Source: Candidatus Poribacteria bacterium (lineage in GTDB: Bacteria > Poribacteria > WGA-4E > WGA-3G). Taken from it: a stretch of DNA of 64,000 nt. The position numbers were made by a program, and so were the translations under genes. The first letter of the stretch is position 1. The number at the start of each line of letters is the position of its first letter. Below are positions 36,501-61,139 of the stretch, piece after piece. The stretch lies in assembly GCA_963665235.2 (NCBI GenBank), contig CAXXLX010000001.1:160001-224000 (forward strand). Reading direction: 5' to 3'. The notes beneath the pieces are model-generated. The model was not told the origin of the DNA. It did no database searches and worked only from the letters and a program-made list of their open reading frames with translations.

Positions 36501-37039
36501 GGGATAGTGAACGCGCTGGGTCAACCGTGGATGTGCTATCGGGTGTCAGTTATACGGTCACAGTCACGAACACTGGGAATATGGATGACACGATAGTGCT
36601 TAGCTCTTCAGCAGAGATTGGCATTGAGGGGAGTGTGCGCGGGACTTTCACTGCCGCAGGTTCGCAAGGAGAGCCGAGTGGTCAGCTAGAAGTTGTGCTA
36701 GCCCCGGGCACGTCTGCCGAGGTGCTCTTCACAGCAGCGGGGGATGCCTTCACAAAACCGGGCGAATACACGATTGAAGTTACAGCAACTTCGCAAAACG
36801 ATCGCACAAAAACCGCCATGCTCACCATTACAACGACGATAACCCCAGTACCCTCAGATGTAAATGCTGATGGGATGGTAAATATTTTGGATTTAGTGAA
36901 GGTCGCTAATCAATTCGGTGAAGTTGGCGATAGTCTCGTTTCGGATGTGACTATGGATGGTGTGGTAAATATTTTGGATTTAGTGAAGGTCGCTAATCAA
37001 TTCGGTAAGACACAAGTGGAGATTGTGACGGAGAACTAG
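33547..37039 (+). pseudogene. Large secreted protein: DUF3108-like domain + about 8 Ig-like 107-aa repeats + dockerin-like end; frameshifted at 36061-36073
   Basis: ORFs 33547-36105 and 36182-37039 continue the same 321-bp repeat; extra 13 bp gtaaacttatgcc; DVNADGMVNILDLV twice. Confidence 0.8.
34220..36470 (+). repeat. 321-bp intragenic tandem repeats
   Basis: Seven similar units, the central ones near-identical. Confidence 0.9.
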
Positions 37040-37320: not shown

Positions 37321-37474
37321 GGCAGTACTGTTCCACTACCTTTCGAAGACAAGATGAGGGATATAGCTATCCCCTCACGCAAAACGCTTATTTTTTCCTT
37401 GATACTTTCTGGAACTTGTGATATTATTTTAGCAACGAATGTTTGTATATTTACAGAAAAAGGAGCTCAAAATT

Positions 37475-39337
37475 TTGAAATTTACTATATTTACGCGTTG
37501 CCTGCAACCGATTCTAATACTAAGCCTTGTATGTGGTTTTGCACTGACAGCAACCGCACAAGATTACTATCCAACAACTATTGGAAATACATGGGGTCTC
37601 CTCAGTACCGATGAGGCTGAACGGCTCACCTATTCAATTGAAGAGATCGAAAACGGTACGGTGGAAGGGGTTTTTCTCCTGAAAATCGTTACAGAGACAC
37701 TCGGCACTGAAACCGTTGATATTGACAAGTACTATATTTCTGATGAAAATGGCAATCTTTTACTACACGCGACAGCGACAGATGAAGGCACGTTCGGTAT
37801 TGCAGAATCTACGCTTGACCCACCCGCCACTTTCTTCCCCGCAGAATTGCCACTCGGCCGGACCTGGCAAGTTGTAACCGTAGCAGAACTTAACCTCGTA
37901 GGCACTTCAACAACTACAAGTACTATAAAAGTTGTCTCCATCGAGGATGTCGTAACGCCTGCTGGCACATTTGCCGACTGCGTTAAGATTGAAATAAATA
38001 GGCAATCTGTCACTGCCCTTTTAACAGTTCGCTCAACCTATTACCAATGGTTGGCACCGGATGTCGGGCCTATCAAATATGAAAACGACCAGGGAATTGT
38101 GTTTGAATTGGAAAGCTACAACCTCGTTGACGCAACTGATGATAGCACAACAGACGCGGACACAGATGACTCTTCCGTGACTGATGACACTACGGATGAC
38201 GACACCACAACAAGCGAACCCACGGATGATGGCACTACCGATGACGACACCACAACAGGCGAACCCACGGATGATGGCACTACCGATGACGACACCACAA
38301 CAGGTGAACCCACGGATGATGGCACTACCGATGACGACGATACCACAACAGATGAACCTACGTCCGACGATGGAACAGACGATACTGGTACAACTGAGGA
38401 TGACATGCCCGAGGATACGCCGACGGAACCAACTGAATACAGCTTTGACATTACCCTTGCCCCGGGATTGAACATGATATCTATTCCGCTAATGCCAGCG
38501 GAACCTTACACAGCGAAAGCCCTCGCTGAAATGTTAGGTTCAACGATTGTCATTAAACTTGACGCATCGACACAGCGTTTCGTTGGTTACACCATCGCGG
38601 AGGATGATGACGGTTTTGCTATTGATGGCGGTAGCGGCTATATCATCAACAGCTCCGCCGGGCGAGTTGTCCCGTTTACAGGCAAGGCATGGACTGATGC
38701 ATCTGCTGCACCGAAAATCAGCACGGCGAAAAGCGCGTGGGCATTTGTCATCACAACCGATTTACAACGGAAACAGACCGGGGTAGCTTATACCGTGATT
38801 GCTAAAAACCTTCGCACAGGAGCTGTCACAACGCAAAACGTTACGCCTGAAGATGCACGCGTCTCCGCTGTTTGGGCAAATCTGAATTACAAGAGCGTCG
38901 CTAAAGCCGGGGATACGATTGAGATTAAACTCCTCGACGAACGCGGCACCCTTGTCTCCGGACCGTTCCAACGTACAATTCAAACCTCTGACATTCACAA
39001 CGCCTATATGAGTGTGCAAATGCAAGTCGGGAACGTGCTTCCTCAAAAAACGATTCTGGGACAGAACTTCCCGAATCCGTTCAACCCTGAAACCTGGATA
39101 CCTTATCAACTCAAACAAAACACCGATGTAACACTCCGCATCTTTGATGTTTCGGGACGTTTGATTCGCACGTTAGACTTGGGGCATAAGTCAACAGGGT
39201 TATATGTGACAATCTCAACGGCGGCATATTGGGATGGTAAAAATGACGCGGGTGAAACTGTTTCAAGCGGAATCTATTTCTACACGCTCCAAACAGAGAA
39301 TTTCTCCGCTACCCGCCGAATGGTTATCCTCAAATAG
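37475..39337 (+). CDS. Secreted protein: DUF3108-like domain, D/T-rich repeat linker, C-terminal FlgD-Ig/T9SS-CTD-like domain
   Basis: Signal peptide, QDYYP..YQWLAPDVGP, PTDDGTTDDD repeats, QNFPNPFNPETWIPY...WDGKN..GE.VSSGIYFY. Confidence 0.85.
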   Translation: MKFTIFTRCLQPILILSLVCGFALTATAQDYYPTTIGNTWGLLSTDEAERLTYSIEEIENGTVEGVFLLKIVTETLGTETVDIDKYYISDENGNLLLHATATDEGTFGIAESTLDPPATFFPAELPLGRTWQVVTVAELNLVGTSTTTSTIKVVSIEDVVTPAGTFADCVKIEINRQSVTALLTVRSTYYQWLAPDVGPIKYENDQGIVFELESYNLVDATDDSTTDADTDDSSVTDDTTDDDTTTSEPTDDGTTDDDTTTGEPTDDGTTDDDTTTGEPTDDGTTDDDDTTTDEPTSDDGTDDTGTTEDDMPEDTPTEPTEYSFDITLAPGLNMISIPLMPAEPYTAKALAEMLGSTIVIKLDASTQRFVGYTIAEDDDGFAIDGGSGYIINSSAGRVVPFTGKAWTDASAAPKISTAKSAWAFVITTDLQRKQTGVAYTVIAKNLRTGAVTTQNVTPEDARVSAVWANLNYKSVAKAGDTIEIKLLDERGTLVSGPFQRTIQTSDIHNAYMSVQMQVGNVLPQKTILGQNFPNPFNPETWIPYQLKQNTDVTLRIFDVSGRLIRTLDLGHKSTGLYVTISTAAYWDGKNDAGETVSSGIYFYTLQTENFSATRRMVILK

Positions 39338-44628: not shown

Positions 44629-45408
44629 TTAACGTTTAAGAGCTCCCCACGTTAATGCAAGTTTGCCTGCTGGGGCGACATCCAAAAATTCGGAGTCAAA
44701 GGTGAGGTCGCCAAAGGCGAGTGCGTCCCAGGCACCTCCGGCTATCCACCCGATTTGGTGTTCACGGGTGCCGTTTTCACAATCGTTCATGTGAAAGCTG
44801 AATCCGATGGTGAGTCCGTTTTTTGCTTTAAAGTTTGCGCCTCTACCGGGGTTCGCAAATTGAGGATTGCCGCGCGGTGCAGTCGGATCGATGGCGACTT
44901 CGTAGATGTAATCGTTGCCTTTTTTGACAACTATCCACTCGGTATTATCAGCGGAGGCTGCAGCGGAGAGGTCTTTGCCGTTGGCTCCAAGTGTCCACTG
45001 CACAAGTCCATCTCGTACCATCTCGTTATCAAAATCGAACATAAATTCGACGCTGTCGTCTTCCCACCATTTACTATCGGGGGGGTTAATGTCTTGAAGT
45101 TTATCATCGGTGATTTCGACAGCGAAGTAGATGCGGGTTGGGTCAGCTGCGCTCCACGCGATGCGGCCTTTTCCGGTAAAGTCGTTGGCGTTAGGGAGGC
45201 CTGGGCCTACATCTTTTAACTGATCGAAGGCAACACTTTCTGCACGCTGCCATTCACCGAGATTGCCGTCTACCTTGAAGTTGGAAATCTGTTTGGCAAT
45301 GTACTGCTTATCACGTTCGACGGCGAAAGTTAAGTCGGTTGCACAGATTATCAGAAGGAGTCCTACGATAATCGGTGCTACATTTTTAAACTTGATATGT
45401 TTCTTCAT
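44629..45408 (-). CDS. Secreted CBM9/DOMON-like sugar-binding protein with TWG tail
   Basis: Signal peptide; VDGNLGEW, IYFAVEITDD, WEDDSVEF; ends VAPAGKLALTWGALKR. Confidence 0.75.
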   Translation of the reverse strand: MKKHIKFKNVAPIIVGLLLIICATDLTFAVERDKQYIAKQISNFKVDGNLGEWQRAESVAFDQLKDVGPGLPNANDFTGKGRIAWSAADPTRIYFAVEITDDKLQDINPPDSKWWEDDSVEFMFDFDNEMVRDGLVQWTLGANGKDLSAAASADNTEWIVVKKGNDYIYEVAIDPTAPRGNPQFANPGRGANFKAKNGLTIGFSFHMNDCENGTREHQIGWIAGGAWDALAFGDLTFDSEFLDVAPAGKLALTWGALKR

Positions 45409-45443
45409 AGCAATAGCTCCTTTAGTCAAAAAGCAGATTGGTT

Positions 45444-45701
45444 CTACGATAAAGCAACGGATATTGCGACCGCAAGGGCAACAATCGCAATGCCGGTGGG
45501 TACCCAATTTAGAGCAGACTGCCATCCGGCTTTACGGCCCTTGATTTCAGCAACATCTAGCTCAACCTTCCGTAGTCGACTATCAAGTGTCTCAAGCTGC
45601 TTTGTGAATCGTGCGTCCATGTCAGCTATCTGCTTTGTGAACCGTGAATCCATGTCAGCTATCTGCTTTGACAACAAATCGTATAATTCTTGTGTAGTCA
45701 T
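45444..45701 (-). CDS. Small coiled-coil protein with C-terminal TM helix
   Basis: KQIADMDxRFT tandem (33 bp), hydrophobic tail, RBS ggag. Confidence 0.6.
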   Translation of the reverse strand: MTTQELYDLLSKQIADMDSRFTKQIADMDARFTKQLETLDSRLRKVELDVAEIKGRKAGWQSALNWVPTGIAIVALAVAISVALS

Positions 45702-45712
45702 CAAAAATCTCC

Positions 45713-45901
45713 CTAGCCCTTTAGTATCTGTCTGAGGATGAGGAACGCGCCACCAATGACGATAACGCATAGGGCGATACTCGTGATGACTGCAAGAAAG
45801 AAGACAAAGATGCCGAAAATCCATTTAAGGATTTCTATGAGAATCCAAGCAATCGCAAGAAAAGCGATAATGCCCAAAACGATGCTTAAAATTGTGCCCA
45901 T
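45713..45901 (-). CDS. Small 2-TM hypothetical protein
   Basis: 62 aa, almost entirely hydrophobic. Confidence 0.55.
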   Translation of the reverse strand: MGTILSIVLGIIAFLAIAWILIEILKWIFGIFVFFLAVITSIALCVIVIGGAFLILRQILKG

Positions 45902-45972
45902 GAGTTATTTTTAGGGCGGATGTTGCATCCGCCCATCCTATAAGTGTTAATGTGTAGATTGACAATTAGGTT

Positions 45973-46728
45973 CTATTTTTTGAGGCTTCCCCACGTAACA
46001 GCAAGTTTTGCTTTGGGGTCGACAGCTGTAAGATTTGTTTCGAGACCGTTATTCATCACATTTTGAACGTCGCTTTCAGGTAAAGCGGTGTTGAAGATGA
46101 TGAATTCGTCGATTAACCCTTGCCATTGCCGCTGTCCGTTCCAGTCGCCAATTCTTCCGGGGTCAAGGACACCGGGGTTGCCGCCCCAGTTGTGTTCAGC
46201 GTCAAGTTCACCATTGATGTAAAAGCGAATCTTCTTTTCTGTAGCACTGTAAGCGGTTGCGACGTGAACCCATTTATCCAATTGGTCTGTTGTAAACGCA
46301 AAATTTGCGAACGAGTCGTTGCCGCCGGGGTTCCCGTTAATAGAAAATTCTACTCGATTGTTTGGGTGCAGCTGATAATGAATATCGCCACCTTTCCACC
46401 CAGTGTTGTTGAAAAAGGTTCGCCATCCACCTACACGGCCAGTGGCTTTGACCCAGTGCGTGAACGTAATTTCCTCAAACTCGCCGATGCGTTTGGGTAC
46501 GTTAACCCATTCGTTTGTGCCGTTCAACTGTATAGCTTGACCGATTTTGCCATCAACGAAACTGCCGCCTTGTAGTTCGCCATCAAATCCGTTTCCTGAA
46601 AAATCTTCGGCATTACCGTCAAATAGCCATGCAGCGGCAACCATATCTGACGAGACCTGCGCGGAGCTGGGCAAGCTGATGAGCGACAGGACAAGTAAAC
46701 TTAGGACAATTGTAGTTATTCTTAACAA
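45973..46728 (-). CDS. Secreted LamG/ConA-like domain protein with TWG tail
   Basis: AAWLFDGNAEDFSGNG, WVHVA, FYING, GLIDEF; ends AVDPKAKLAVTWGSLKK. Confidence 0.85.
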   Translation of the reverse strand: MLRITTIVLSLLVLSLISLPSSAQVSSDMVAAAWLFDGNAEDFSGNGFDGELQGGSFVDGKIGQAIQLNGTNEWVNVPKRIGEFEEITFTHWVKATGRVGGWRTFFNNTGWKGGDIHYQLHPNNRVEFSINGNPGGNDSFANFAFTTDQLDKWVHVATAYSATEKKIRFYINGELDAEHNWGGNPGVLDPGRIGDWNGQRQWQGLIDEFIIFNTALPESDVQNVMNNGLETNLTAVDPKAKLAVTWGSLKK

Positions 46729-46767
46729 AATGAACCTCCTCTAGCGTGTCATAAGACAAGTGTTCGT

Positions 46768-47520
46768 CTATTTTTTGAGGCTACCCCAGGTGATAGCCAA
46801 TTTCTGCTTCGGATCAACGGCGAGTCCGCCTTCTATACCGTCATTCATGACAGACTTAATGTCTGCCTCACTTAAGACGGTGTTGAAGATAACGAATTCA
46901 TCGAAGAGGCCCTGCCAATGCCGTTGACCATCCCATGAACCAATTTTGCCGGGGTCAAGTACCCCGGGGTTGCCGCCCCAGTTGTGTTCGGCATCAAGTT
47001 CGCCGTTGATGTAAAAACGAATCTTTTTTTCTGTAGCACTGTAAGCGGTGGTGATATGAATCCACTTATTCATTTCACCGCCAGCTACTGCGAAGTTGGC
47101 AAACGTGTCGTTGCCGCCGGGGTTACCTCTAATAGAAAACTCCACTTTATTGTTTGGGTGCAGTTGATAATGAATATCGCCATCTTTCCAACCGGCGTTG
47201 TTGAAAAAGGTTCGCCAATCGTTTTCTCGTCCAGTGGATTTGACCCAGTGGGCCAAGGTGACTTCCTCAAACGAGCCCATCGCTTTGCCAATGGTAATCC
47301 ATTCGCTTGACCCGTTCAATTCAATTGCTTTTCCGATTTTGCCATCAACAAATTTTCCGCCTTGAAGTTCACCGTCGAATCCGTTACCGGAAATGTCTTT
47401 GGCATCGCCATCAAATATCCATGCTGCGACAATCATCTCCTCGGTGATTTCTGCCGAAACGGACATGCTGAAGCTCACGATGAGCAGCAGGCTTAGGGCA
47501 ACTATTGTAGCTTTCAACAC
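46768..47520 (-). CDS. Secreted LamG/ConA-like domain protein, paralog, with TWG tail
   Basis: GTG start after aggagg; ends AVDPKQKLAITWGSLKK. Confidence 0.85.
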   Translation of the reverse strand: MLKATIVALSLLLIVSFSMSVSAEITEEMIVAAWIFDGDAKDISGNGFDGELQGGKFVDGKIGKAIELNGSSEWITIGKAMGSFEEVTLAHWVKSTGRENDWRTFFNNAGWKDGDIHYQLHPNNKVEFSIRGNPGGNDTFANFAVAGGEMNKWIHITTAYSATEKKIRFYINGELDAEHNWGGNPGVLDPGKIGSWDGQRHWQGLFDEFVIFNTVLSEADIKSVMNDGIEGGLAVDPKQKLAITWGSLKK

Positions 47521-47619
47521 AATAAACCTCCTATATCTTACTAAACTTTGGACAATTTTAGGAGTTTGTCTATAGGGTGAACAGAACACGGTAGAAAGAC
47601 ATCGGACATCTCGATTACA

Positions 47620-47740
47620 CATTTCGCCCCGCTGGGGCTTAGTCTGGCCGGCTGCCGCGTTTTCTATAAACAGACCGCCCCGAGGGGCTAGTTTGTGGTG
47701 TGTTTGTGTTTTCTATAAACAGACCGCCCCGAGGGGGCTG
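47620..47740. repeat. ttctataaaca..cgccccg..ggggct module, tandem copies
   Basis: Also at about 19633-19695, 49595-49675, 51725-51840, 55868-55950 and 57820-57850. Confidence 0.75.
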
Positions 47741-47832
47741 CGCTTTGGAAAACCCATCGGTGTTTATTTTTCTCCTATTTGTCCATGTCTGATGAGCGTT
47801 GCAGGATGCGGATTTCGTGCCGCGCCTGCTCA

Positions 47833-48150
47833 GATTTTCTCTCCGTTATCGCGCTTAATGGATATGCGCGCGCGAAATGAGAGCGAAGCATTGTAAATGT
47901 CCACAATGCAAACAAAAACCCGCACTTGAGACACTCCATAAAAAAGTGAAGTGTGCACGTGCGGGCGTGAAGGTATCGCAGCTTGTAAATCCTACGACAC
48001 TGTCTTGTGATATAAACTTAACAAATGTAAAACTTATTAAGGGGGGGGGTAAACTGTTAGTTATAATGCATCCGATAGGGACAGGCCCAAAATATCCTTG
48101 AACGAACGACAGATACCGGATATGTTCATTTCTGAAAAGTGATGTGTTTC
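47833..48150 (-). promoter_or_regulatory. Conserved ~320-bp leader, copy A (candidate cis-regulatory RNA)
   Basis: Collinear homology to 56015-56331; lies downstream of TTGCAT-N17-TACACT (48292-48264). Confidence 0.55.
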
Positions 48151-48361
48151 TCACTGCTGGGGTCCCCCATGAAATTTAAAGTCGATTCAAAAATTTCGCG
48201 CCATCAGTCAAGAAAATAGTTTTCTAGGAAGGCACAAATTGAAATGGACTGTCTGTTCGATATAGTGTATCAAAAAACCGTTTTTAATGCAACTCTTAAA
48301 AATCCAGGGAGTGTGTAAAGTGTTTGTAACCAGGACAGACGCAGCGCGTTGATAAACCCTT

Positions 48362-48592
48362 CAGGACTTACGCAAATTTAGAACATAAGCTCAGTATTCG
48401 GGCAAACGGTTTCCCGCTCCTCTAGGGCTGGGTCCCCCAGCCCGCTAAGTCAACCTCTAAATCCCATTATCTATGGACTTTAGCAACGTGCTGCGTAAGC
48501 CCTTATAATAATGGGAGCATAGGGGGAGAAATAGCGGGCGAGGGCACCTCGCTTAATCCTACGAAGCTGTCCGCTAAATTTGCGTCCATCCT
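48362..48592. mobile_element. MITE-like unit with AGGACTTACGCA-type ends
   Basis: caggacttacgcaaatttag at 48362; tgcgtaagccct at about 48492 and ctaaatttgcgtccatcct at about 48574; same end at 43751-43771. Confidence 0.5.
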
Positions 48593-48598
48593 ATTGTG

Positions 48599-49480
48599 CT
48601 AAATAGAACGATGTCCGGCGAAGCCGCGCGGGTTTTCAAATGCGTCTGTCCACAGATGACACCACTCCGCATGGTCTGTTAGGACAGTTTCAGGATTTTT
48701 TCGGCTGCGCACGATGAAGTCTGGATGTGCTGTTCTCCCGGTGTGATGGCCTGTCGTCTGAAAACGGAGGTCTAATGACCATCGGCATCGGTCGGAGCTG
48801 TTCGGTTGCGACCGGTGTGGCGTGAACCGGCTGAGTAAGATGATATCGCCGCGGTAACATTCCAACATCATCGGTTCAACGTCGGGCATGAGCTCTGGTA
48901 TAATCATGGTGCCGCCCGCTTTCTGATGTGTGAGGTATCCGATATCTTCAGTAATACCTGGCAGTGCTTCGAGGCATCCCATTTCAATAGTGCTATCGCC
49001 TAAGGGAAGCCAACAGGTGACGATATTTGATGCTTCTGCTTCTTCCATCATAACGCCAGCGTCTTGGTGCCAGGGTACGCCGCCAGCCCAGCTTGCGTTT
49101 CCATCAACGACGGGTGGTTTTGCGCGGACATGCTGAATGGGGTTGCAGGTAATTTCGGGCCCGACAATTCCTTCAATAACATCGAGCAGGTTGTCGTTCC
49201 GCATGAATTCAAAGATGGCTTTGCCGCGATAGTGCATAATGTCCATTCCACTGTTGATTTCACCGGACTGGGCGAGGAGTTTTCCAAACCGCCTGTCGAA
49301 GGGTTCTGCTTCATAGAGATTTTCAATCTTTCCTTGCTGCTGTAGGGCGGTGGCACGTTCTGAAATCCAGTCCTCAATTTCGTCAATGACGGGTTGGACA
49401 TCTGCATCTGTGAGTGCGTTTTTGACTATCAGGACACCTTGTGTACGGTAGGTGTCTTTCTGTTCTTGGGTGAGTTTCAT
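48599..49480 (-). CDS. Phytanoyl-CoA dioxygenase (PhyH) family protein
   Basis: PWHQD, TCWLPL, TPHRSQPN.S..CRWSLDLRF. Confidence 0.88.
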   Translation of the reverse strand: MKLTQEQKDTYRTQGVLIVKNALTDADVQPVIDEIEDWISERATALQQQGKIENLYEAEPFDRRFGKLLAQSGEINSGMDIMHYRGKAIFEFMRNDNLLDVIEGIVGPEITCNPIQHVRAKPPVVDGNASWAGGVPWHQDAGVMMEEAEASNIVTCWLPLGDSTIEMGCLEALPGITEDIGYLTHQKAGGTMIIPELMPDVEPMMLECYRGDIILLSRFTPHRSQPNSSDRCRWSLDLRFQTTGHHTGRTAHPDFIVRSRKNPETVLTDHAEWCHLWTDAFENPRGFAGHRSI

Positions 49481-49560
49481 AACCTCTCCTTTTAATGCGC
49501 TATGTTTTATCATTAATAATAGCATGAAAGCGAACAGTAAACAAGAAAAAATGGCCAATG

Positions 49561-50513
49561 GGGTGTGTAAAGTTTTTGTACAAGTTGTTCAGTCTTAGCC
49601 CAGTATGGGCGTTATGTTTATAGCGTGACACACCCCCCCCTTCTTAGCCCAGTATGGGCGTTATGTTTATAGAATGTTGGTTTATGGCAGAATTGGCTCA
49701 TAGCAGTTGGCAAAGAAGCGGTTGGCAAGAGCTTGTGATTATAGTCCGCGTTCTGACGCGCGTCACATCCCGCTTCCTCTTGCTAATCGCCGATGAGCGA
49801 ATTGCCAATACTATTTTTTCTGAAGAAAAATCAAACAGTTCGCAACTAATATAACAGAAAACCAAAACATTTTTCGGAGAAAAGCGGCACGGTTTGCAAC
49901 GAAGCTGAGCGGACACCGATAGCGTGTGTCAAAAGTGTAACATTTCCACCGGAACCACCTCAAAAAGTAGGAGGCAGAACGGTAAGAAAACTCCGCAGAA
50001 CAGATACCCGAAATCGACGGTTAAAATGACACAACGCGTTTTTTTGTGTTGCGAAATTTCGTTTTTTATGTGTTGGGAAAAAATGGGTCGAAACCGAATA
50101 GAGGGCAAAACGGCTTATAAAGCTATGCGTGGCGTGCGTTCAGACACATTCAGAACCGAGAACCAAATGTTACACTTTGTGTCAAAAGTGTAACATTTCC
50201 ACCGGTTTTGTACAAAAACTTTACACACCCCTTTGCTATGGGTGTGTAAAATTTTTGTACACCCGTTTGTAGTAGGGCGATTCATCGCCCGGCCGGTTGT
50301 AATAGAAGCCGTTTGTAGTAGGGCGATTCATCGCCCGGCGTGTCGTCCAGGGTTGTGATGTGCGATGGGTTTTGCTCCTAGGATCAGGGCTGCGACGGGC
50401 AATAAATGGTTTCCCTACTACGAGCACCGCTCTGATGGACAATGAGTCGCATTGTAGGAATAGGCGGTTTTAAACATCAATGGATTAACTTGTATAGAAA
50501 CTTTACACACTCC
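49561..50513. repeat. Gene-free mosaic of repeat modules, including GTAG-REP-like copies
   Basis: gtacaaaaactttacacaccc-type ends at 49561, 50210, 50240 and 50493; gtagtagggcgattcatcgcccg twice plus an inverted copy (50263-50421). Confidence 0.75.
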
Positions 50514-50676
50514 ATAAGTCTTGGAAGATATATCGATAAGTAGATGATTCAAACATGGGAACCTCCATTTTTTGTCAGGATCGCGGATTATCGGGGATTA
50601 CGTGGATTACGCGGGTTTTAAGCTATCGTCTGATACCTATAACCCGCGCGAAATCCATTGGTGGGGCTGCCCGGTG

Positions 50677-51525
50677 CTATTTTCCGTTTTCAGTCAATTT
50701 TTGCCTGAATGCCTCGAGGGTGTCTACCTGTGCGGCTGTTCGGACGAGTGCGTCAAGCCGTTGGGGGTCTTCTATCCCCTCAAGGGATAACTGTAATTCC
50801 TCATTTGTGCCGATTCCGAATCGAGCGTCAAGGACACTCAAGATGTTTTTGACAGCAGTTTCTCGTTGTCCTTCTTGTTGTCCTTGTTCGAAGATATATC
50901 GATAAGTAGATGATTCAAACATGGGAACCTCCATAAGATGTTTGATTTCTTCGGGGTCAACGATTAACCCACTCAAAATCCATTGCCATAGTAGTAAGTT
51001 GTTTTGAACATCAGGGTCAAGGTCCAGCGTGCGTACCTGTTCGTGGCACCGTTCGACCCATTCCACCGCGGATACATCGTCCGGTCGCTTCATTAGGGGC
51101 GTGAATGCCAATTTAGCGATTAGCAATTGGCGATTAGCAATTGGCAAAGAAGAAGAGGACTCTGACGCGCGTTAGAGTTCTTATTAGAATCAGAAAATCT
51201 TGCCATAAGCCAATAGCCAATAGCCATTAGCCAGTTTCCGTTTCACTATTTCTGTTTCGGACTGGTTGCTGACTTGAAACTCTATATGCACTAAAACCTC
51301 TTTTCCATTAATTCGCACCTTCGCGAGGATATCCATGCGTCGTATTTCGACGGTGGGTAGTTCTGTATCGAGGTGTTCAATGAACTCGAGGTCTCGGATG
51401 TTTGTAAAATGTCGCAACAATGCTTCGGCGAACACGGCGAATATGCCTTTGCTTACAATATCGTAGCGTTGATGCGGTAATGCTTCGAGTAGTTGTCTAA
51501 AAAAATCTTTTGTCTTATCTTTCAT
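50677..51525 (-). pseudogene. Rpn-family (PD-(D/E)xK recombination-promoting nuclease/putative transposase) gene split by a repeat module
   Basis: N part YDIVSK..LDTELP..RRMDIL..HIEFQ; C part LAFTPLM..ESSTY..EQGQQEG..L.ARFG; heptamer module at 51112-51231. Confidence 0.75.
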
Positions 51526-52315
51526 AGCGGGATGTTATCCTTCAAAACTGGGATAATTAGAAATGCATGTTAATATTATACACTGACTTGTAACGTTTGT
51601 CAATCGTTATTAGCGATTGGCAAATTGGCGATTGGAAACCAGAGGTTGTGATTCTAAGCAGGTTTTTGGCGCGCGTCTAAAATCTCTTTCTCTTGCCAAT
51701 AGTCAACGGTTTCCAATAACCAACATTCTATAAATATATCGCCCCGCTGGGGCTAGTTTGTGTGTTGTTTGTGTTTTCTATAAATATATCGTCCCTACGG
51801 GACTAACAGAGGGGATGGCATCTGCTGCTATAAACATACCGTCCTTGAGGAGCGGGCTGCTTGCCCGAATACTGGGATTAAAAGCAGGGGAGTTCTCTGC
51901 TGACTCTTCTGTAGGTGCGAGCTTCGCTCGCGATTTTTTGCCCTCGTTTATAGTGATGGGCCTCATGCGATCAGAAAATCGGTTTAATATATCAAAACAT
52001 ATCTCGATTGTACGGAGAACCAAGTGATATAATCTATCACAAGCACATCTCACTCTTGAGGAGCGGCCTGTTTTGCCAGTATTCAGACAAGCAGCCTGCT
52101 CCTCACACTAGAAAATCGGCATACACATATCTTTAAAATCCGCGTCATCCGTGTCCTCCGCGATAATTCGCGATTCAGATAACACACGCGAAATCCACCC
52201 TTCCACCCTTCCACCCTTCCATTTATCATAGTACAAAAACTTTACACACCCCCCATTTTTGGACGATCTTTTCAAAAAAACGAAAAATATGATATACTTA
52301 ATCAAATCGGAGAAT

Positions 52316-53749
52316 TTGACATACTCCCCCAGCTAAAGCAAGGGGGATTCTTTTGAAAGTGAATCCCATGCTCTCTGGTGCGGATTGTGGGGTATAGACT
52401 TCGGGTGAAGTCTGCGAGGGCTGCTCGCAATAGCAAGGCTGACATCCTCTAATCCAAAGGTTGACGCCCCAACCTTTAAAATATTTATCGCAGCGTTAAC
52501 GTCACGATGGTGTTTCTGCGCGCAAGTAGAACAACACTATTGACGAACAGACAAGTCCAGCTGCTGTTTTCGCTGTCCACAGTGGCTACAAGTCTTAGAA
52601 GTCGGTTCAAAACGGTCAATATAGTGAACCTCTTTACCGTGTTTGACCGCTTGATGGCGCAACTTTTGATGAAACGAGTAGGGCGCAATATCAGAAACTT
52701 GACGACCCCAGATGCGTTTCATACCCTCAAAAGTCAACGTCTCAAAACAGAGGTCATCGTGTTCATGCACAAAACGCTTCGCGAGTTTCCAATGATGATC
52801 CTCACGTTGTCTCTTGATTTTACGGTGTTTGCGTGCCACATCTAAGCGGGAACGCTCACAGTTGTTGCTACCCTTTACTTTCTTAGCATGGGCACGTTGT
52901 GCCACAGACAAATCCGCCATAGAGGTTTTATAGAACTCAGGAGACGCATAGGCTGTGCCATCGGAACAGGTGAACATCGTTTTGATACCGAAATCATACC
53001 CTGCAGCACTACCCGTCTTAGGTAGGATTTCAGATACGGTGTCATCTGTTACAACACACATATAGAAGTCACCAACACTATCTGCTTTGATAGTGACTGT
53101 CTTAATATTACCTACTATCTCGCGGCTTAGATTAAACCGATATTGTTTTTCCATTATACGGACCCTATCACCATAGAAACTATAGCCAGAGGGGGACATT
53201 GTGAATGAATACGGTTTGCGCCATGAACGAAACTTAGGCGGACGCTTCGCAATACACTTAAAAAAACGCTGATACCCGGTGTCTAAACGCCGCAGTATAT
53301 CACGCGCCGCCCAAGAGTCTAACTCACGCCAATGCGAAAACACTTCAGGATGTGAGTTCCTAAGGACGGTAAAGGCACGCGACATCTCAGGAAGCGACAT
53401 ATACGCAAGACCAAGAGAATAGCGCGTCCGCTGCCAACCTAAAAAATAGTTACAAACATCATGGGCCACCCACGTTAAACGCTTGAGATTACGATTACGC
53501 GGGGCACGAAAAAGTTTGTATTTTGTGGTATACATCTAAGGGTATCCTGCCTTGAAAAGTTGCTACCTGCCTCTAAAAAGGGGCGGAGAAGTCTATAGTA
53601 CAAAAACTTTACATTTTTGGACGATTCTCCGCTAAGGCATTAAATAGAGTATACCCCATTTTTCAGGAAAAGTCAAATTAAAATTTCAACTCATGCACCG
53701 CTACTACATCCCCCAGCTAAAGCATGGGGGTTTTGTAGCGGAAGATTTG
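52316..53749 (-). mobile_element. IS200/IS605-family tnpB-only element, copy 2
   Basis: Same ends and TTTAT target as copy 1; 25 bp longer. Confidence 0.9.
52333..53535 (-). pseudogene. tnpB: tnpB with premature TAG at 52537-52539, losing half of the Zn finger and RuvC III
   Basis: TGG in copy 1 is TAG here; the downstream frame is otherwise intact. Confidence 0.88.
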
Positions 53750-53771
53750 ATAAACGTGGAAGGAATCTCAC

Positions 53772-55412
53772 ATGGTGAACAAACCCGGTCCTGTTTTCAC
53801 AAGTGTTGCCTTATTGAGCATCCTATTTGTCTGGTACGGATACGCGTACGGAGACCAGTACGGATACGCGGCAGACATTCAGTTTGTAGATGTTACGGAA
53901 GCAGCGGGTATCCGTTTTGAACATGTGGGGGGTATAGCGCATCGCGTAGTGCCCGCGCTTGTGGGTTCAGGGGCTGCATGGCGAGATTATGATGAAAACG
54001 GCACCCTGGATCTGTATATTGTTAACAGCGCGGCGGTGAGACCTGAACCGGGGACAATTCTTCCCAAAAACGCGCTTTACCGAAATAATGGCGATGGCAC
54101 TTTTACAGACGTGACGGATACCGCAGGCGTTGGGGACACGGGATGGGGCATGGGATGCGCCTTCGCTGATTATGATAACGATGGTGATGCTGACCTTTAT
54201 GTGACAAACTATAAAGCGAACGTCTTCTATTTGAACAAGGGGGATGGTACATTCAAACGTTTCACATCGGGTGCTGGCGGGATTGGCCATACAGGTTTTG
54301 GGGCAGGTATTGTGTGGGCGGATTACGATGCGGATGGGTTTGTTGAACTTTACTTCGGCAACTATATCGAGTATAGCAAAGTTCCACAGGGAGATGAGGT
54401 TTTCTTTCCTTACGATTTTTTCGGACAGGCGAATGTTCTTTATTTGAACAGAGGTGATGGCGGGTTCGTTGATGTTACCGATGCTGCGAAGGTTAATGGC
54501 GGGTTTCACTTAACGCTGGGGGTGGCCGCTGCAGATTATGATAACGATGGGGACCTAGATATATACCTCGCTAATGATACCGATCAGAATATTCTCTACC
54601 GAAACGATGACGATATGACGTTTATGAATACGAATCATCCGGACGCGAGAAGCGGTACGGGGGATATTCGCAGCGGAATGGGTGTCGCCTGGGGCGATTA
54701 TGATAACGATGGGAGGCTGGATCTGTTCGTTACAAATTGGCTCGATGAGAACAATGTGCTTTACCGAAATAGAGGGGATGGCACGTTTATTGATGTTTCG
54801 GCACAGAGCGGTGTTTTTGAGTCTGGACTCGGGAAGACCTGTTGGGGCACGGTATTTTTCGATGTAGATAACGACATGGACCTAGATCTGTTTTTCTCGG
54901 CTGGACATATTGACCCTGCCTCGTGGGAGAAGCATGGGCAGCCGGATGTGCTGCTCCGTAATAATGGCGATGGGACGTTCACCGATATATCTGAACGGGT
55001 GGGCCTTCGGCAGTTGAATTCACCGGGGGTTGGCAGAGGTGTTGCTGCTGGCGACTACGATGCAGATGGGGATGTGGATTTGGTGATTGTGAATAGCGGT
55101 GAAAAGCTGAGATTGCTCCGCAACGATAGCAGGAATAGACACAATTGGCTTCATATCCGCACTATCGGTGTGAAGAGCAATCGTGATGGGATTGGGGCGC
55201 GAGTCAAAGTTATCACAGGCGATATCCATCAAATTCGTGAGGTTGCTGCAGGGAGCAGTTATCTATCTCAGCACAGTCCGACGGTGGAATTTGGACTTAG
55301 CACTTATAACAAAGTTGATAGGGTTATTATTCAATGGCCGAGCGGTATCGTTCAGACGTTGAACGATATTGCGGTGAATCAGAGGTTGGTTGTGACGGAA
55401 AAGGTGGAGTGA
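53772..55412 (+). CDS. CRTAC1-family protein (FG-GAP/VCBS repeats + ASPIC/UnbV)
   Basis: DYDNDGDxD repeats, SNRDGIGARV, SYLSQH..VEFGL, IQWPSG. Confidence 0.9.
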   Translation: MVNKPGPVFTSVALLSILFVWYGYAYGDQYGYAADIQFVDVTEAAGIRFEHVGGIAHRVVPALVGSGAAWRDYDENGTLDLYIVNSAAVRPEPGTILPKNALYRNNGDGTFTDVTDTAGVGDTGWGMGCAFADYDNDGDADLYVTNYKANVFYLNKGDGTFKRFTSGAGGIGHTGFGAGIVWADYDADGFVELYFGNYIEYSKVPQGDEVFFPYDFFGQANVLYLNRGDGGFVDVTDAAKVNGGFHLTLGVAAADYDNDGDLDIYLANDTDQNILYRNDDDMTFMNTNHPDARSGTGDIRSGMGVAWGDYDNDGRLDLFVTNWLDENNVLYRNRGDGTFIDVSAQSGVFESGLGKTCWGTVFFDVDNDMDLDLFFSAGHIDPASWEKHGQPDVLLRNNGDGTFTDISERVGLRQLNSPGVGRGVAAGDYDADGDVDLVIVNSGEKLRLLRNDSRNRHNWLHIRTIGVKSNRDGIGARVKVITGDIHQIREVAAGSSYLSQHSPTVEFGLSTYNKVDRVIIQWPSGIVQTLNDIAVNQRLVVTEKVE

Positions 55413-55699
55413 GCGGGGATGTGTAAAGTTTTGGTACAAAGGATAGGTGAAGGGTGGAAGAGGAGAAGAATGGAAGAATGGAAGAGGGGAAGGATGGAAG
55501 GGTGGATTTCGCGGGTGTTGTCTGAATCGCGGAAGGCGCGGAGAACACGGAAGGCGCGGAAAAAAGAGGTTTGTTGCTAACATCTAACCATTTTTGTCTG
55601 AATCGCAGAGAACACGGAGAACACGGAAGGCGCAGATTGTCCGATGGGTAACAATCAAAGGTTTGTGATTAATACGCCCCCAATTTTTTAAAAATTTGA

Positions 55700-55728
55700 T
55701 TGACATTAATCGGAAATTTCGGTATAAT
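55700..55728 (+). promoter_or_regulatory. Consensus sigma70 promoter
   Basis: TTGACA-N17-TATAAT, about 650 bp upstream of the next CDS. Confidence 0.7.
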
Positions 55729-56014
55729 TATAGAATTAGCAATTGGCTCATTGGCAATTGGCAAGAAATATAAGAGAAGAGAAGAAATATAAGAAAGAGA
55801 AGATTCTCTTTCTCTTTGTTCTCTTCCTCTTGCTATAGGTTTCCAACGGTTTCCATAAGCCAGCGAAGCTATAAACATATCACCCCGCCGGGGCTAAGAG
55901 TTGTGGGGTTGCATATTTCTATAGACATACCGCCCATACTGGGCTAAGACATCAGAACGCTTTTCAAACTAACGTTAGCTATCAATTTTTTTTTCACACG
56001 GGGACTTGACGATG

Positions 56015-56331
56015 CAAAACGAATTGCTATTCAGAAATGAACGGAGCCGATATCTGTCATTTTTTCGGGAGTGTCTTATTGCGGTCCCCAAGGGGCATGA
56101 CTTAACGATTAGGAATTACCCCCCCCTTCATATTTTACAATCGTTAATTTTGTTTTACAAGGCAGCGCAGCAGGATTTACAAGCTGCAATACCTTCGCGC
56201 CTGTACGCGCCCTTCATTTTTATGGGGTGCTGCAGGCTTTTTTTGTTGCATTGTGGGTATCTACAGTGCATGTCTCTCTTATTGCGTTGCGCGTGTATAT
56301 AGAAATTGTGCGCGATACCGAAGAGAAAATT
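56015..56331 (+). promoter_or_regulatory. Conserved ~320-bp leader, copy B
   Basis: Homologous to the reverse complement of 47833-48150. Confidence 0.55.
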
Positions 56332-56380
56332 TAATTGTTGTAGTAGGCACGTTTCGCCGTGCCGTAACAGGAGGAAACTG

Positions 56381-57028
56381 ATGCTACGAAGATTATTACT
56401 GATACTTCTATGTGCCGTTTTTGTAGCGGGTCTTGTTCATGATGGTATACCTGCTAAAGAGATTCGGGTTCGAGGCGGTCACGTGGCTGATTTTAAGGAT
56501 TCTAAGGGCCGTATCTGGTATGGCGGTCAAAATACTGACCAAGAGTGGGGCGGCTGGATTGAGAAATTGCCGCTTACAGCCGAGGTCGCAAACCTGACAG
56601 CTAATGCTAAAAATCTGGCAAAGCAGGAAGGTTACGATGAACCGCTCTTCCATGCTGTGAGTTGGGCAGCCTTTCCGGATGTCGTCAAGGTTGATTTGAA
56701 AACCGGGAGAGGTGTCTTCGACGTAACCTATCTGGTCGGTGAACATTGGTCCCCAAATAATCGCGGTTTTGATATTTTCATCGAAGATGAGAATGTTGAA
56801 CCGCTCTATGTCACACCCGGTAGAGACGAGATCGATATTAAGCGGTACGAAGGCATTGAGGTTAAGGATAGCGTGATGAGTTTCGTATTTGCTGGCAACA
56901 ATGCAACAGGCAAAGGCGATCTGAATGCTATGTTCAGTGGGATAGAGGTTATTCCTACGTTGGCTGTTGAGCCGGAGCGGAAACTGACGACAACGTGGGG
57001 CATCCTCAAAAGTGAACGACAAAACTAA
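56381..57028 (+). CDS. Secreted malectin-like domain protein with TWG tail
   Basis: Signal peptide; FKDSKGRIW, G.FDVT..VGEHW...RGFDI, AMFSGIEV; ends AVEPERKLTTTWGILKS. Confidence 0.7.
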   Translation: MLRRLLLILLCAVFVAGLVHDGIPAKEIRVRGGHVADFKDSKGRIWYGGQNTDQEWGGWIEKLPLTAEVANLTANAKNLAKQEGYDEPLFHAVSWAAFPDVVKVDLKTGRGVFDVTYLVGEHWSPNNRGFDIFIEDENVEPLYVTPGRDEIDIKRYEGIEVKDSVMSFVFAGNNATGKGDLNAMFSGIEVIPTLAVEPERKLTTTWGILKSERQN

Positions 57029-57045
57029 GATAATGGAGGTACATT

Positions 57046-57693
57046 ATGAGATTATTGTGCATTTTAACAGTAGCGATTTTTCTTGTAGGGGCCATCGGGC
57101 CGGCTGTGGTGTTGGCAGAGGAATACCGTGTCCGAGGCGGGCATGCGGGTGATTTTACCGATTCAAAGGGCCGTGTCTGGTATGGCGCGCAACAGGCTGA
57201 CCAAGATTGGGGCGGCTGGATTGAAAAAGCACCGCTCACCGCTGAAGTCGCTACATTGACAGATGATGCGAAAGCACTAGCGCAAGAAGCGGGTTACGAT
57301 GAGGCACTCTTCCACGCTGTGAGCTGGGCAGCATTCCCTGATACGGTTAAATATCAGTTCAAAACGGGCAACGGTGTTTTTGATGTAACCTATATGGTCG
57401 GTGAGCATTGGTCGCCTAACAATCGCGGCTTTGATATTATTATCGAAGAGGAGATTGTTGAAGCACTGTATGTCACACCCGGTAGAGATGAGATTGATAT
57501 TAAGCGGTATGAAGCGATTGAGGTGACAGATGGTACGCTCGATTTTAACTTTGCTGGCAACGGTGAAACAGGCGCAGGTGATCTGAATGCTATGTTCAGT
57601 GCGTTGGAGGCTGTGACATCGGCTGTTACTGCTGTAGATGCGAAGGCGAAGTTGACAACGACCTGGGGTGCGCTGAAAAGTAATCGCCAATAA
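57046..57693 (+). CDS. Secreted malectin-like domain protein, paralog, with TWG tail
   Basis: Paralog of the previous gene; ends AVDAKAKLTTTWGALKS. Confidence 0.7.
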   Translation: MRLLCILTVAIFLVGAIGPAVVLAEEYRVRGGHAGDFTDSKGRVWYGAQQADQDWGGWIEKAPLTAEVATLTDDAKALAQEAGYDEALFHAVSWAAFPDTVKYQFKTGNGVFDVTYMVGEHWSPNNRGFDIIIEEEIVEALYVTPGRDEIDIKRYEAIEVTDGTLDFNFAGNGETGAGDLNAMFSALEAVTSAVTAVDAKAKLTTTWGALKSNRQ

Positions 57694-61100: not shown

Positions 61101-61139
61101 GTTACGTCTTTCTTGGAGGCATTGGCATCTGGTAATTAG
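58137..61139 (+). CDS. Secreted WD40 (about 14 repeats) + zinc metallopeptidase + dockerin-like protein
   Basis: WD40 repeats, HELGHALGLYH..LM metzincin motif, DLNGDG and DVNGDGTVNILD. Confidence 0.88.
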   Translation: MKTGFIFAVCFVIIFAIGASIGFTHTPENIDNPQWHLPEGAIARLGKGTVNGLTYSPDGAQLVVASSIGIWVYDAQTLAPLSLSTGHTDIVSSVAYSPNGRTFASGSWDNTVRLWNAGTGQSKTVLSGHGDRIVSVGYSPDGRTFVSGSWDNTVRLWDTHTGQLKTILSGHTHRVNNVAFSPQGNMVASSAVEEDTVRLWDVATGETVSVLTVSTKGLTALAYSPDGTVLAVGEQGGGVQLWDVSAGEALATFTGHTKPVTSLAYSPDGSMLVSGSEGGTIRLWDVTSGRSVATLTKHSGNVHSVAYSPDGGTLVSGSDDGAIYFWDVATREIGAMLSGHAAPGDSVTYSPDGNIIAAGSENGTLRLWDVETRQPVATLIGHTARIRGVAFSPDGSRLGSVGGLDRTARLWDVATGEPISVLTGHVGGVLYIAFSPDGKTLATAGGYRDNTIRLWDVASGETTAVLIGHTSWVRSIAFSPDGKTLASVGGFGDNSVRLWDVGSGQTKAILTGHTSWVHTVAYSPDGSTIASAGNDTTVRLWDVASGQMKAILTGHTYEVFSVAFSPDGSMLASAGPRTVRLWHPTTGHAIATLTGTVYGTRSVAFSPDSSTLASTGADGTVFLWDLSLLLSEVKEIQTAVSQIQQQDSEGPRVRLAYFYPKDQVPRSGIVAQVDRIMKDVQVFYAREMKRHGYDIKTFRFEADPSGHALVHHIEGEFEQVYYEDNPYGKVFTEIHEYFDRPQDIFMVFLEVSGEFFGRDICGLGGIHGGGGGTAMFPALGNCFSFRIVAHELGHALGLYHDHREPNLMSGSTGYLSRLTRCTAHFLAVHPIFNFEQVSSNTLPKIHRLSPIGSLSTSIRIRFSVTHEEELHQVQLFAEALPIDPLPGTKLLACQDLKGKTAAFAFPITELTATPAEPISLQLTDIHGRTSWTWFPNPLDGTVQLDLNGDGVLDFSDLAVIGTNFGSTSEFNKADVNGDGTVNILDIVLVTSFLEALASGN

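Follow-up and report, generated by a model that had tools for sequence, protein, structure and literature searches.

A conserved C-terminal TWG tail of exported Candidatus Poribacteria proteins, probably a hitherto undescribed cell-envelope address label

Known C-terminal signals and the TWG tail

In the species studied, the C-terminal domain (CTD) of type IX secretion system (T9SS) cargo is cut off at a linker and the new C-terminus is then attached to the cell surface; PorU, together with PorV, PorQ and PorZ, removes the CTD and attaches the cargo. Tripartite sorting signals form another class (LPXTG/sortase, PEP-CTERM/exosortase, GlyGly-CTERM/rhombosortase and MYXO-CTERM), and to our knowledge all characterized C-terminal sorting signals consist either of a membrane helix for a sortase-type enzyme or of a folded domain. 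In Prevotella, cargo is cut within a flexible linker that precedes the folded CTD, and a cleavage-site motif marks these positions (PMC11969387). Cleavage by P. gingivalis PorU is reported to be sequence-independent (PMC4804311).

Here we describe a short C-terminal peptide, the TWG tail, originally noticed on five proteins encoded in a 64,000-nucleotide stretch of DNA (the window) from a Candidatus Poribacteria genome (92.6% complete, approx. 4,500 crude gene calls). Members of this phylum are dominant symbionts of sponges and have not been cultured.

The tail resembles the type A CTD of the T9SS (PF18962 / TIGR04183) in that it is C-terminal on Sec-exported, otherwise unrelated proteins, occurs in a genome encoding PorV/PorQ-family barrels and C25 PorU-like peptidases, and lies adjacent to this domain in fusions. 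In contrast to the CTD (a β-sandwich of approx. 75–90 residues), it comprises 17–21 residues, is predicted to be unstructured and lacks motifs B, D and E; moreover, it is placed N-terminally to the CTD and would therefore remain on the mature protein instead of leaving with the signal. With the tripartite signals the tail shares its portability, its presence on many unrelated exported proteins of a single lineage and a basic end, but it is hydrophilic and has no transmembrane helix, and a search for exosortase turned up no cognate sortase-type gene. The dockerin–cohesin pair (PF00404 / PF00963, encoded in the same genome) offers a further parallel, a C-terminal module by which many bodies share one partner, although the dockerin folds into a domain of approx. 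60 residues that binds calcium, and dockerin type I (PF00404) was absent from all 25 tail proteins scanned. Finally, the PT/GI cleavage-site motif of Prevotella intermedia (PMC11969387) is likewise short, conserved, linear and located in the passenger–CTD linker. The poribacterial tail differs in having another sequence and a much greater length, in preceding only a minority of the CTD cargo, and in occurring on >100 proteins per genome without a CTD, an arrangement not known to be described for any T9SS motif.

Sequence, carriers and distribution of the tail

The five proteins were said to share their C-terminal tail, and the open reading frames (ORFs) and tails were indeed found (Table 1). 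All five tails fit V-x-P-x-x-K-L-x-T-T-W-G-x-[LI]-K followed by 1–5 residues; DVAPAGKLALTWGALKR has 1 residue beyond the invariant Lys, and AVEPERKLTTTWGILKSERQN and AVDAKAKLTTTWGALKSNRQ extend 4 and 3 residues, respectively, beyond the ends quoted in the earlier note. The start of the CBM9-like protein is an ATG preceding the hydrophobic leader MKKHIKFKNVAPIIVGLLLIIC. The longest ORF of the second LamG protein has 284 aa, with a likely start (TTG at 47517) located before the leader, which would give 249 aa. The ORF of the first malectin-like protein opens at 56306, upstream of the candidate ATG.

Table 1. Coordinates of the T9SS cargo protein, the tail proteins and their TWG tails within the window
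Feature	Coordinates	Strand	Evidence or remark
T9SS cargo, DUF3108-like body, acidic linker, Por_Secre_tail CTD	37439..39337	+	PF18962 30.6 bits
CBM9-like exported protein, 259 aa, tail-only	44629..45408	-	PF06452 CBM9_1 56.7 bits
ORF around CBM9-like protein	44629-45525	-	ends in DVAPAGKLALTWGALKR
TWG tail DVAPAGKLALTWGALKR of CBM9-like protein	44632..44682	-	HMM 28.3 bits
First LamG exported protein, 251 aa, tail-only	45973..46728	-	PF13385 (Laminin_G_3) 72.6 bits
TWG tail AVDPKAKLAVTWGSLKK of first LamG protein	45976..46026	-	HMM 32.1 bits
Second LamG exported protein, tail-only	46768..47622	-	PF13385 (Laminin_G_3) 69.1 bits
TWG tail AVDPKQKLAITWGSLKK of second LamG protein	46771..46821	-	HMM 34.1 bits
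First malectin-like exported protein, 215 aa from ATG 56381, tail-only	56381..57028	+	fold via orthologue
TWG tail AVEPERKLTTTWGILKSERQN of first malectin-like protein	56963..57025	+	HMM 34.3 bits
Second malectin-like exported protein, 215 aa	57046..57693	+	69% identical paralogue of 56381..57028
TWG tail AVDAKAKLTTTWGALKSNRQ of second malectin-like protein	57631..57690	+	ORF and tail HMM

The bodies of these proteins belong to three unrelated types, as proposed: CBM9_1 and Laminin_G_3 were assigned by Pfam, and the malectin-like fold by the structure of an orthologue. Neither malectin-like protein has a Pfam match; a 78%-identical orthologue matched Malectin structure clusters (TM 0.62–0.68) in alignments covering residues 20 to approx. 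198, and in 9 of 10 rows the aligned fold does not include the tail. The second malectin-like protein has 510 relatives, the best 120 of which are 70–94% identical, and residues K202, T206, W207, L210 and K211 of its tail are invariant in 27 orthologues.

The overall consensus is L-[AP]-V-[EDS]-P-x-[GD]-K-L-[AT]-T-T-W-G-x-[LI]-K (a motif of approx. 17–21 residues) followed by 1–10 mostly basic or polar residues. Those beyond the Lys are variable (mostly R, A, Q, S and K), position −2 is predominantly β-branched (T in 80, V in 13 and I in 10 of 106 tails), and the modal end of tail-only proteins is the Lys plus 3 residues (44/106). The only hydrophobic residues between the Pro and the Lys are L, W and L/I, in agreement with the statement that the tail has no membrane helix. 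Third-position identity at shared four-fold codons is 0.297 (27,018 comparisons); the codons are thus scrambled, and selection therefore acts at the peptide level.

AlphaFold2 modeling of a body–tail–CTD segment gave a confident CTD (pLDDT 83–91) and a body of approx. 70–80, while residues 108–139, which hold the tail, were modeled as coil with pLDDT <50. The tail was also coil (pLDDT <50) in a further model, which was poor overall (pLDDT 58.9). The tail is therefore predicted to be an intrinsically unstructured linear motif.

A strict regular expression matched 39 of 43,390 six-frame ORFs of this genome, all 39 of them 1–10 residues from the stop codon. The tail HMM detected 106 terminal and 5 non-terminal ORFs, and a looser rule yielded 133 tail ORFs. 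In nearly all tail ORFs the tail lies within 12 residues of the stop, and the N-terminus resembles a signal peptide. Tail genes thus make up about 2–3% of genes (106–133 of approx. 4,500 crude calls). At the DNA level, the core motif had 72 matches in the genome versus 0 for the reversed pattern. A hydrophobic N-terminal stretch was present in 124 of 130 tail ORFs versus 207 of 599 size-matched control ORFs, by a crude heuristic in which the best start was picked for both sets. Two of the checks suggested in the earlier note, terminal position and co-occurrence with signal peptides, therefore gave positive results: the TWG tail sits at the C-terminus, and only exported proteins carry it. It is also portable. 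Worldwide there were 567 representative hits, and among the best 150 of these the tail was within 12 residues of the protein end in 145.

The core motif was present in all 151 sampled Poribacteria genomes (approx. 11,600 matches in total), compared with 0–2 matches per strand for the reversed pattern; the five genomes poorest in pattern matches (1–13) nevertheless yielded 12–83 HMM matches. CTDs were also found in 151/151 genomes, so the co-occurrence of tails and CTDs carries no discriminating weight.

The bodies of the tail proteins form 27 BLAST clusters and represent at least 8 Pfam families above cut-off (Laminin_G_3, CBM9_1, PD40, RhaB_D2, CBM_4_9, NPCBM, LTD and Ldl_recept_b), with no Pfam match (E≤0.01) for 9 of 20 cluster representatives. 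The cargo extends beyond the glycan-binding modules named in the earlier note, as the tail is also carried by PD40 and YWTD propellers and by a lamin-tail-domain protein.

No Pfam or NCBIfam model matched the tail, so that in these searches it did not coincide with a characterized sorting domain. Neither PF18962 nor TIGR04183 matched the five proteins, whether searched whole or as the terminal 29–30 residues alone, even at E≤10. The OMP β-signal, an aromatic residue at the extreme C-terminus of a barrel protein, was considered and rejected: the residues following the Lys are mostly R, A, Q, S and K, and the bodies have soluble folds of the lectin or propeller type. The window had been described as lacking dedicated machinery, and none was found encoded there or adjoining tail genes, beside which no reader gene was enriched and no candidate receptor was detected.

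Coupling of the tail to the T9SS CTD

The pattern W-[GA]-x-[LIVMF]-K-(1-11 aa)-PNPFNP, in which the tail directly precedes a CTD, was present in 87 of 151 genomes and absent from 64, with 0 matches for the reversed pattern. All 30 fetched fusion loci encode a full CTD downstream of the tail, and 26 of them the canonical V-x-[PA]-x-x-K upstream. The spacing between the Lys and [YF]PNPF is nearly fixed (7 residues in 28 loci, 6 in 2). With the last 4 spacer residues ([LVI][FLY][QP]N) the CTD unit usually begins, as seen for 34 of the 40 CTDs encoded here; the tail unit therefore ends at the Lys plus 3 residues, as do tail-only proteins at their modal end. Since the tail occupies the linker before the CTD, tail-only proteins would end approximately where tail+CTD proteins would be cut.

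The fusions are a minority. Only 1–6 CTD proteins per genome carry a tail by the strict pattern, and in this genome there was one degenerate fusion among 40 CTD matches. Most come from a small number of FG-GAP/ASPIC and WD40 families, which indicates few independent fusion events. In this fused minority, the tail has the features of a linker motif, being directly N-terminal to the folded CTD with pLDDT <50; ordinary CTD linkers of this genome mostly have no Lys, one occurring within 8 residues before the LLxN start in 9 of 40 cases. The view that the tail is distinct from the T9SS CTD is borne out as regards length and the lack of a model match, but the two are physically coupled, at a fixed distance, in the 87 genomes.

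Analysis of T9SS components in this genome revealed, besides at least 40 CTDs, three PorV/PorQ-family barrels (NF033709, 183–230 bits; cut-off 90), three Peptidase_C25 proteins (278–304 bits), each with a propeptide and a CTD, and an SprA-like protein scoring below curated cut-offs. The PorV and PorU equivalog models also scored below cut-off, and searches of the genome (92.6% complete) detected neither GldL nor GldM. The T9SS cargo protein of the window has its CTD at residues 544–630, with no TWG peptide preceding it. A GspD secretin (403.8 bits; cut-off 351) is encoded as well, and the genome holds 53 dockerin and 17 cohesin matches. Within the window, a single body type bears either a dockerin or a CTD.

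Possible functions and significance

The TWG tail is probably a hitherto undescribed cell-envelope address label. As to how it acts, we tentatively favor a linear motif that serves for addressing or attachment and is tied to type IX sorting. The tail would mark Sec-exported poribacterial proteins for a common envelope step. Linker cleavage presumably occurs in Poribacteria too, and a tail+CTD protein, once cut there, would end in the peptide that natively ends approx. 100–130 tail-only proteins per genome. The exposed peptide would be read by a shared envelope partner, probably as an added β-strand; this partner may be a receptor, or else a member of the trio of PorU-like C25 peptidases, with the invariant Lys as its site of action. 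Mostly non-catalytic binding modules would thereby be retained at the cell surface. Tail-only proteins would also have to cross the outer membrane, for which the GspD secretin is one possible route; against the coupled reading, the only export signal known for the T9SS is absent from them. The small number of independent fusions, the below-cut-off SprA-like protein, the failure to detect GldL and GldM, the lack of an enriched reader gene beside tail genes, the scarcity of Lys in ordinary CTD linkers and the reported sequence independence of PorU cleavage in P. gingivalis also count against it.

The tail may instead be a docking strand unrelated to the T9SS, bound by a common receptor or scaffold through donor-strand complementation or β-augmentation, in the periplasm or at the surface, with tail-only proteins exported through Sec and, where required, also through the type II secretin. 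This is a possibility that we consider rather unlikely. It accords with a portable, terminal, predicted disordered tail whose β-branched residues at position −2 suit a strand, with the presence of GspD and of a dockerin/cohesin docking system in the genome, and with the PD40 propellers, which are typically periplasmic. The few tail+CTD proteins would be members that also use the T9SS; however, a spacing to the CTD that stays the same in 28 of 30 loci from distant lineages is unexpected for an unrelated module, and the surroundings of tail genes yielded no candidate receptor.

We regard as unlikely a CTD-independent type IX branch with the tail as its recognition element, in which one of the three PorU-like C25 peptidases would cut after the Lys and couple the cargo covalently to a surface glycolipid, the leaving group being either the 1–10 residues or the entire CTD. 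Such a branch would correspond to LPXTG in Gram-negative cells, but with no membrane anchor, and, if true, a single 17-residue motif would serve to display >100 lectin-like modules per cell covalently.

That the tail alone is recognized by the PorV/SprA translocon, replacing the CTD for small cargo, seems improbable. T9SS-type parts are present, the open frames of tail-only proteins are much shorter than those of CTD proteins (medians of 280 and 904 aa), and shortened CTDs exist in Prevotella, but the shortest characterized ones keep a three-stranded sheet (both PMC11969387), whereas the tail is a motif of approx. 17 residues without motifs B, D or E and without a PF18962 match. It would, moreover, be redundant in cis with a full CTD, and 5 of 133 tail proteins exceed 600 aa, two of them having 3255 and 3275 aa.

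It is very doubtful that the tail is a processing or quality-control signal for a tail-specific or PDZ protease (in maturation, turnover or envelope-stress sensing). Its proximity to the free C-terminus and the variable, basic-rich, trimmable residues after the Lys would fit such a role, but PDZ-type readers contact the carboxylate and the few residues next to it, whereas this motif is followed by 1–10 variable residues; the motif also occurs internally, before the CTD, and a degron carried by >100 conserved proteins in each genome would come at a high cost.

A purely structural role, as the last β-strand of passenger domains that are all β-rich, is highly improbable: the tail is found on sandwiches and propellers alike, across at least eight Pfam families, is coil in both AlphaFold2 models, lies outside the Malectin alignment and is found between body and CTD in fusions, and so does not appear to be the integral part of the passenger fold that the earlier note had considered. 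A degenerate PEP-CTERM-type signal can practically be discounted, the likeness (V-[ED]-P, reminiscent of P-E-P, approx. 12 residues, then Lys/Arg) being superficial, the hydrophobic helix absent, PEP-CTERM models without a match on tail proteins, and exosortase (PF09721) undetected at E≤0.01 in a genome that is 92.6% complete.

If the TWG tail is an address label coupled to type IX sorting, a hydrophilic, unstructured 17-residue tag would be a different solution to sorting. Its fixed position before the CTD links it to CTD removal and surface attachment, and it could reveal how T9SS cargo is retained outside Bacteroidota. A curated tail HMM would annotate thousands of proteins now called hypothetical (the approx. 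11,600 core-motif matches in 151 genomes). Since 2–3% of genes encode small exported modules with this tail, it probably organizes much of what the poribacterial cell shows to its host and its food.

The tail and its terminal position

The earlier note on this DNA had claimed that five exported proteins encoded in the window (ORFs at 44629, 45973, 46768, 56381 and 57046) share a C-terminal tail, V-x-P-x-x-K-L-x-x-T-W-G-x-L-K. All five ORFs were found, and all end in V-x-P-x-x-K-L-x-T-T-W-G-x-[LI]-K plus a few residues; the ends quoted for the last two proteins fall 4 and 3 residues short (…LKSERQN and …LKSNRQ).

Six-frame translation of the whole 5.3-Mb source genome, that of a Candidatus Poribacteria bacterium, gave 43,390 ORFs of 50 aa or longer. 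The regular expression K[LIVM]..[TS]WG..K matched 39 of these, and in all 39 the motif sits 1–10 residues ahead of the stop. A terminal position was borne out by an HMM made from the 39 strict tails, which placed the tail within 12 residues of the stop in 106 of 111 matching ORFs. A less strict regular expression, together with BLAST searches using the bodies, added more degenerate tails, two of which belong to proteins 3255 and 3275 aa long, and brought the union of all methods to 133 tail ORFs. By a crude test, a hydrophobic leader is present in 124/130 tail ORFs, compared with 207/599 size-matched controls.

The logo of 106 tails reads L-[AP]-V(100)-[EDS]-P(80)-x-[GD]-K(100)-L(88)-[AT]-T(80)-T(67)-W-G(82)-x-[LI](102)-K(104). 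The final Lys is followed by 1–10 Arg-rich residues, most often three (44/106). Position −2 is T, V or I in 103/106 tails, a beta-branched preference that would suit binding of the tail as an added strand. In 27,018 comparisons of shared four-fold codons, third-position identity is 0.297; because synonymous codons are thus scrambled, selection acts on the peptide, which rules out a DNA-level repeat or an RNA element. In its behaviour the tail matches a short linear motif that lies exposed close to or at a C-terminus.

The core motif, in its DNA form, was detected in all 151 sampled Poribacteria genomes, typically 40–140 times in each (reversed-pattern control, 0–2 matches per strand). No tail-less genome for a within-phylum contrast was found among them, and the HMM finds 12–83 tails in each of the five genomes poorest in DNA-pattern matches. 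Two of the sampled genomes, G008 (one such match) and G013 (three), were ruled out as tail-poor contrasts by their 68 and 83 HMM tails. A library of 1.84 billion representatives yielded 567 matching proteins at E≤0.001, and in 145 of the best 150 of these the motif lies no more than 12 residues from the protein end. A pattern scan of a genome collection gave, among the matches listed, 73/80 loci titled Poribacteria and 7 titled "uncultured bacterium", a result that carries no information on other phyla.

Bodies carrying the tail

The bodies of 106 tail proteins form 27 BLAST clusters (of 46, 11, 7, 6 and 3 members, eleven pairs and eleven singletons). In a Pfam scan of the window proteins together with 20 representatives of the clusters, eight families passed the cut-off (Laminin_G_3, CBM9_1, PD40, RhaB_D2, CBM_4_9, NPCBM, LTD and Ldl_recept_b); F5/8-type-C matches stayed below it, and nine of the 20 representatives had no match at E≤0.01. 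Within the window, Pfam assigned the first protein to CBM9_1 and the second and third to Laminin_G_3, in agreement with the CBM9-like and LamG bodies named earlier, and gave no match for the last two. The label "malectin-like" for these two is reasonable, since the Atlas model of P0011, an orthologue with 78% identity that stood in for the window protein in the structure comparison, matches Malectin clusters (TM 0.62–0.68). This alignment spans residues 20 to approx. 198 and leaves the tail outside in 9/10 rows. AlphaFold2 modelled the malectin-like protein poorly (pLDDT 58.9). The idea that the tail displays glycan-binding modules stands only in part: such bodies are present, but propellers and a lamin-tail-domain protein bear the tail too.

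Approximately eight PD40 ORFs of the source genome run 25–45 residues beyond the tail, with a common extension (…WGxLK-S-L-L-P-x-Y-R-x-x-F…), which may represent a further module where the T9SS C-terminal domain (CTD) would otherwise sit, or may reflect read-through to conserved sequence downstream. The window also contains a transposase-like gene of the IS605 OrfB/TnpB type (OrfB_IS605, 75 bits; Cas12f1-like TNB domain), located between the two groups of tail genes.

Features of the source genome mentioned in the text (C1, contig; outside the window unless given as window positions)
Position (strand)	Feature
C1:378631-385101(-)	PorU-like protein: C25 propeptide, full Peptidase_C25, CTD
C1:444835-451179(-)	PorU-like protein: same domains
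C1:2707432-2712627(+)	PorU-like protein: same domains
C1:3672972-3675265	locus of a PorV/PorQ-family barrel gene next to a Wza-like gene (L028)
C1:1951168-1952376(-)	PD40 tail ORF with extension, 402 aa
C1:2668423-2669388(-), 2667299-2668441(-)	12-member family gene, then PD40 tail gene
C1:3658359-3659255(+), 3659256-3660368(+)	12-member family gene, then PD40 tail gene
window 36182-37039(+)	dockerin/cohesin locus
window 37439-39337(+)	DUF3108-like, T9SS CTD
window 39466-40284(+)	DUF3108-like, type I dockerin; dockerin/cohesin locus
window 52537-53535(-)	transposase-like gene
window 53772-55412(+)	FG-GAP/UnbV_ASPIC protein
window 58137-61139(+)	WD40 protein, 1000 aa, dockerin at end (C1:220969-221115); dockerin/cohesin locus

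Fusion to type IX domains and the secretion machinery

The source genome yields at least 40 Por_Secre_tail matches, and 34 of 40 CTDs start in the usual way, …LL[AQP]N-YPNPFNPETWIPYQL. One of the 40 CTD proteins, a 775-aa WD40/PD40 protein, reads AVEPKGKQLVTLGQIKRAQ-LLQN-FPNPF…, so that a tail of degenerate form is joined to a CTD. Of the 151 genomes, 87 (in 7/23 genera) contain the pattern W-[GA]-x-[LIVMF]-K-(1-11 aa)-PNPFNP (reversed pattern, 0). A complete CTD lies downstream of the tail in all 30 fetched fusion loci, 26 of which carry the canonical V-x-[PA]-x-x-K upstream, and the spacing from the Lys to [YF]PNPF is fixed, at 7 residues in 28 loci and 6 in the other two. The last four spacer residues already belong to the start of the CTD, which leaves …W-G-x-I-K plus three residues as the tail unit, and this is precisely the point at which tail-only proteins most commonly stop.

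AlphaFold2 modelling of a body-tail-CTD segment (29-row alignment) gave a pLDDT of approx. 70–80 for the UnbV/ASPIC body and 83–91 for the CTD; residues 108–139, including the tail, were predicted as coil (pLDDT <50). In a study of Prevotella intermedia (PMC11969387), the CTD cleavage sites mapped by experiment fall within such a flexible linker, with a short cleavage-site motif, and even the shortest CTDs form a three-stranded sheet. A search for orthologues alternating between the tail-only and fused forms returned only paralogues (26–72% identity) and was not decisive. CTDs are present in 151/151 genomes; as both they and the tail are universal in the sample, their co-occurrence is uninformative. 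The FG-GAP/UnbV_ASPIC protein of the window terminates just past its UnbV domain, without tail or CTD; relatives of this body in other Poribacteria bear both.

Three PorV/PorQ-family barrels exceed the NF033709 cut-off; two of them are PorQ-like, and a PorZ-like protein is encoded upstream of one of these two. One of the three barrel genes (locus L028) lies directly 3′ of a gene for Wza-like polysaccharide export (Poly_export and SLBB). A SprA-like protein (2152 aa) scores under the cut-offs, a GspD secretin is encoded, and neither GldL nor GldM was matched in this 92.6%-complete genome, in which no exosortase was found either. Studied Bacteroidota have one PorU of approx. 1,100–1,200 aa; the source genome encodes three PorU-like proteins of 1731–2156 aa. 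Their number and size, together with the missing GldL and GldM matches, suggest that the T9SS of Poribacteria is reduced or divergent. Kamke et al. 2014 (PMC3909097) describe TIGR04183 domains on poribacterial proteins and report no Por structural genes. A complex prediction that paired the 32 C-terminal residues of the 57046 protein with the PorV-like barrel (residues 24–375, 20-row alignment) gave no verdict (score 0.00, without controls) and speaks neither for nor against an interaction.

The source genome also holds 53 dockerin and 17 cohesin matches, and on its contig C2 many large CTD cargo proteins have a dockerin approx. 200–350 bases upstream of the CTD. Two adjacent DUF3108-like paralogues in the window end in a CTD and a dockerin, respectively, so the same body is available with a choice of address.

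Nature of the tail

Neither Pfam nor NCBIfam contains a model that matches the tail, and a scan of the 29–30 C-terminal residues alone at E≤10 gave none either, which places the tail outside known sorting models, as the earlier note had proposed. No published description was found in the literature searched (subscription journals lay outside its coverage), and with no curated model either, the tail appears undescribed. It would belong in kind with C-terminal address tags, but lacks all the defining features of the known families.

We tentatively read the tail as an address or attachment signal coupled to type IX sorting, a possibility falling slightly short of probable. Weak points of this reading are the tail-only proteins, which have no known passage through the T9SS, and the minority status of the fused form, borne by few body families. 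Neither was a general reader, a partner recognizing the tail, found next to tail genes by neighbourhood enrichment (133 tail genes among 4,509 crude genes). The sole enriched family (12 members, nine of which have a tail gene no more than four genes away, p ~1e-5) is specific to the PD40 subfamily, which rules it out in this role. Its members are secreted, unannotated proteins of approx. 290 aa (…RTDEPYYSVxWYVNDV…YxIKAVA…), whose genes lie directly upstream of PD40-propeller tail genes, in the same orientation and frequently with an overlap; the pair looks like a two-gene cassette.

The exposed end with the tail is either directly encoded or would be made by removal of the CTD. If the tail is an address coupled to type IX sorting, its reader would be a receptor or one of the PorU-like C25 enzymes, the latter with the invariant Lys as its site of action.
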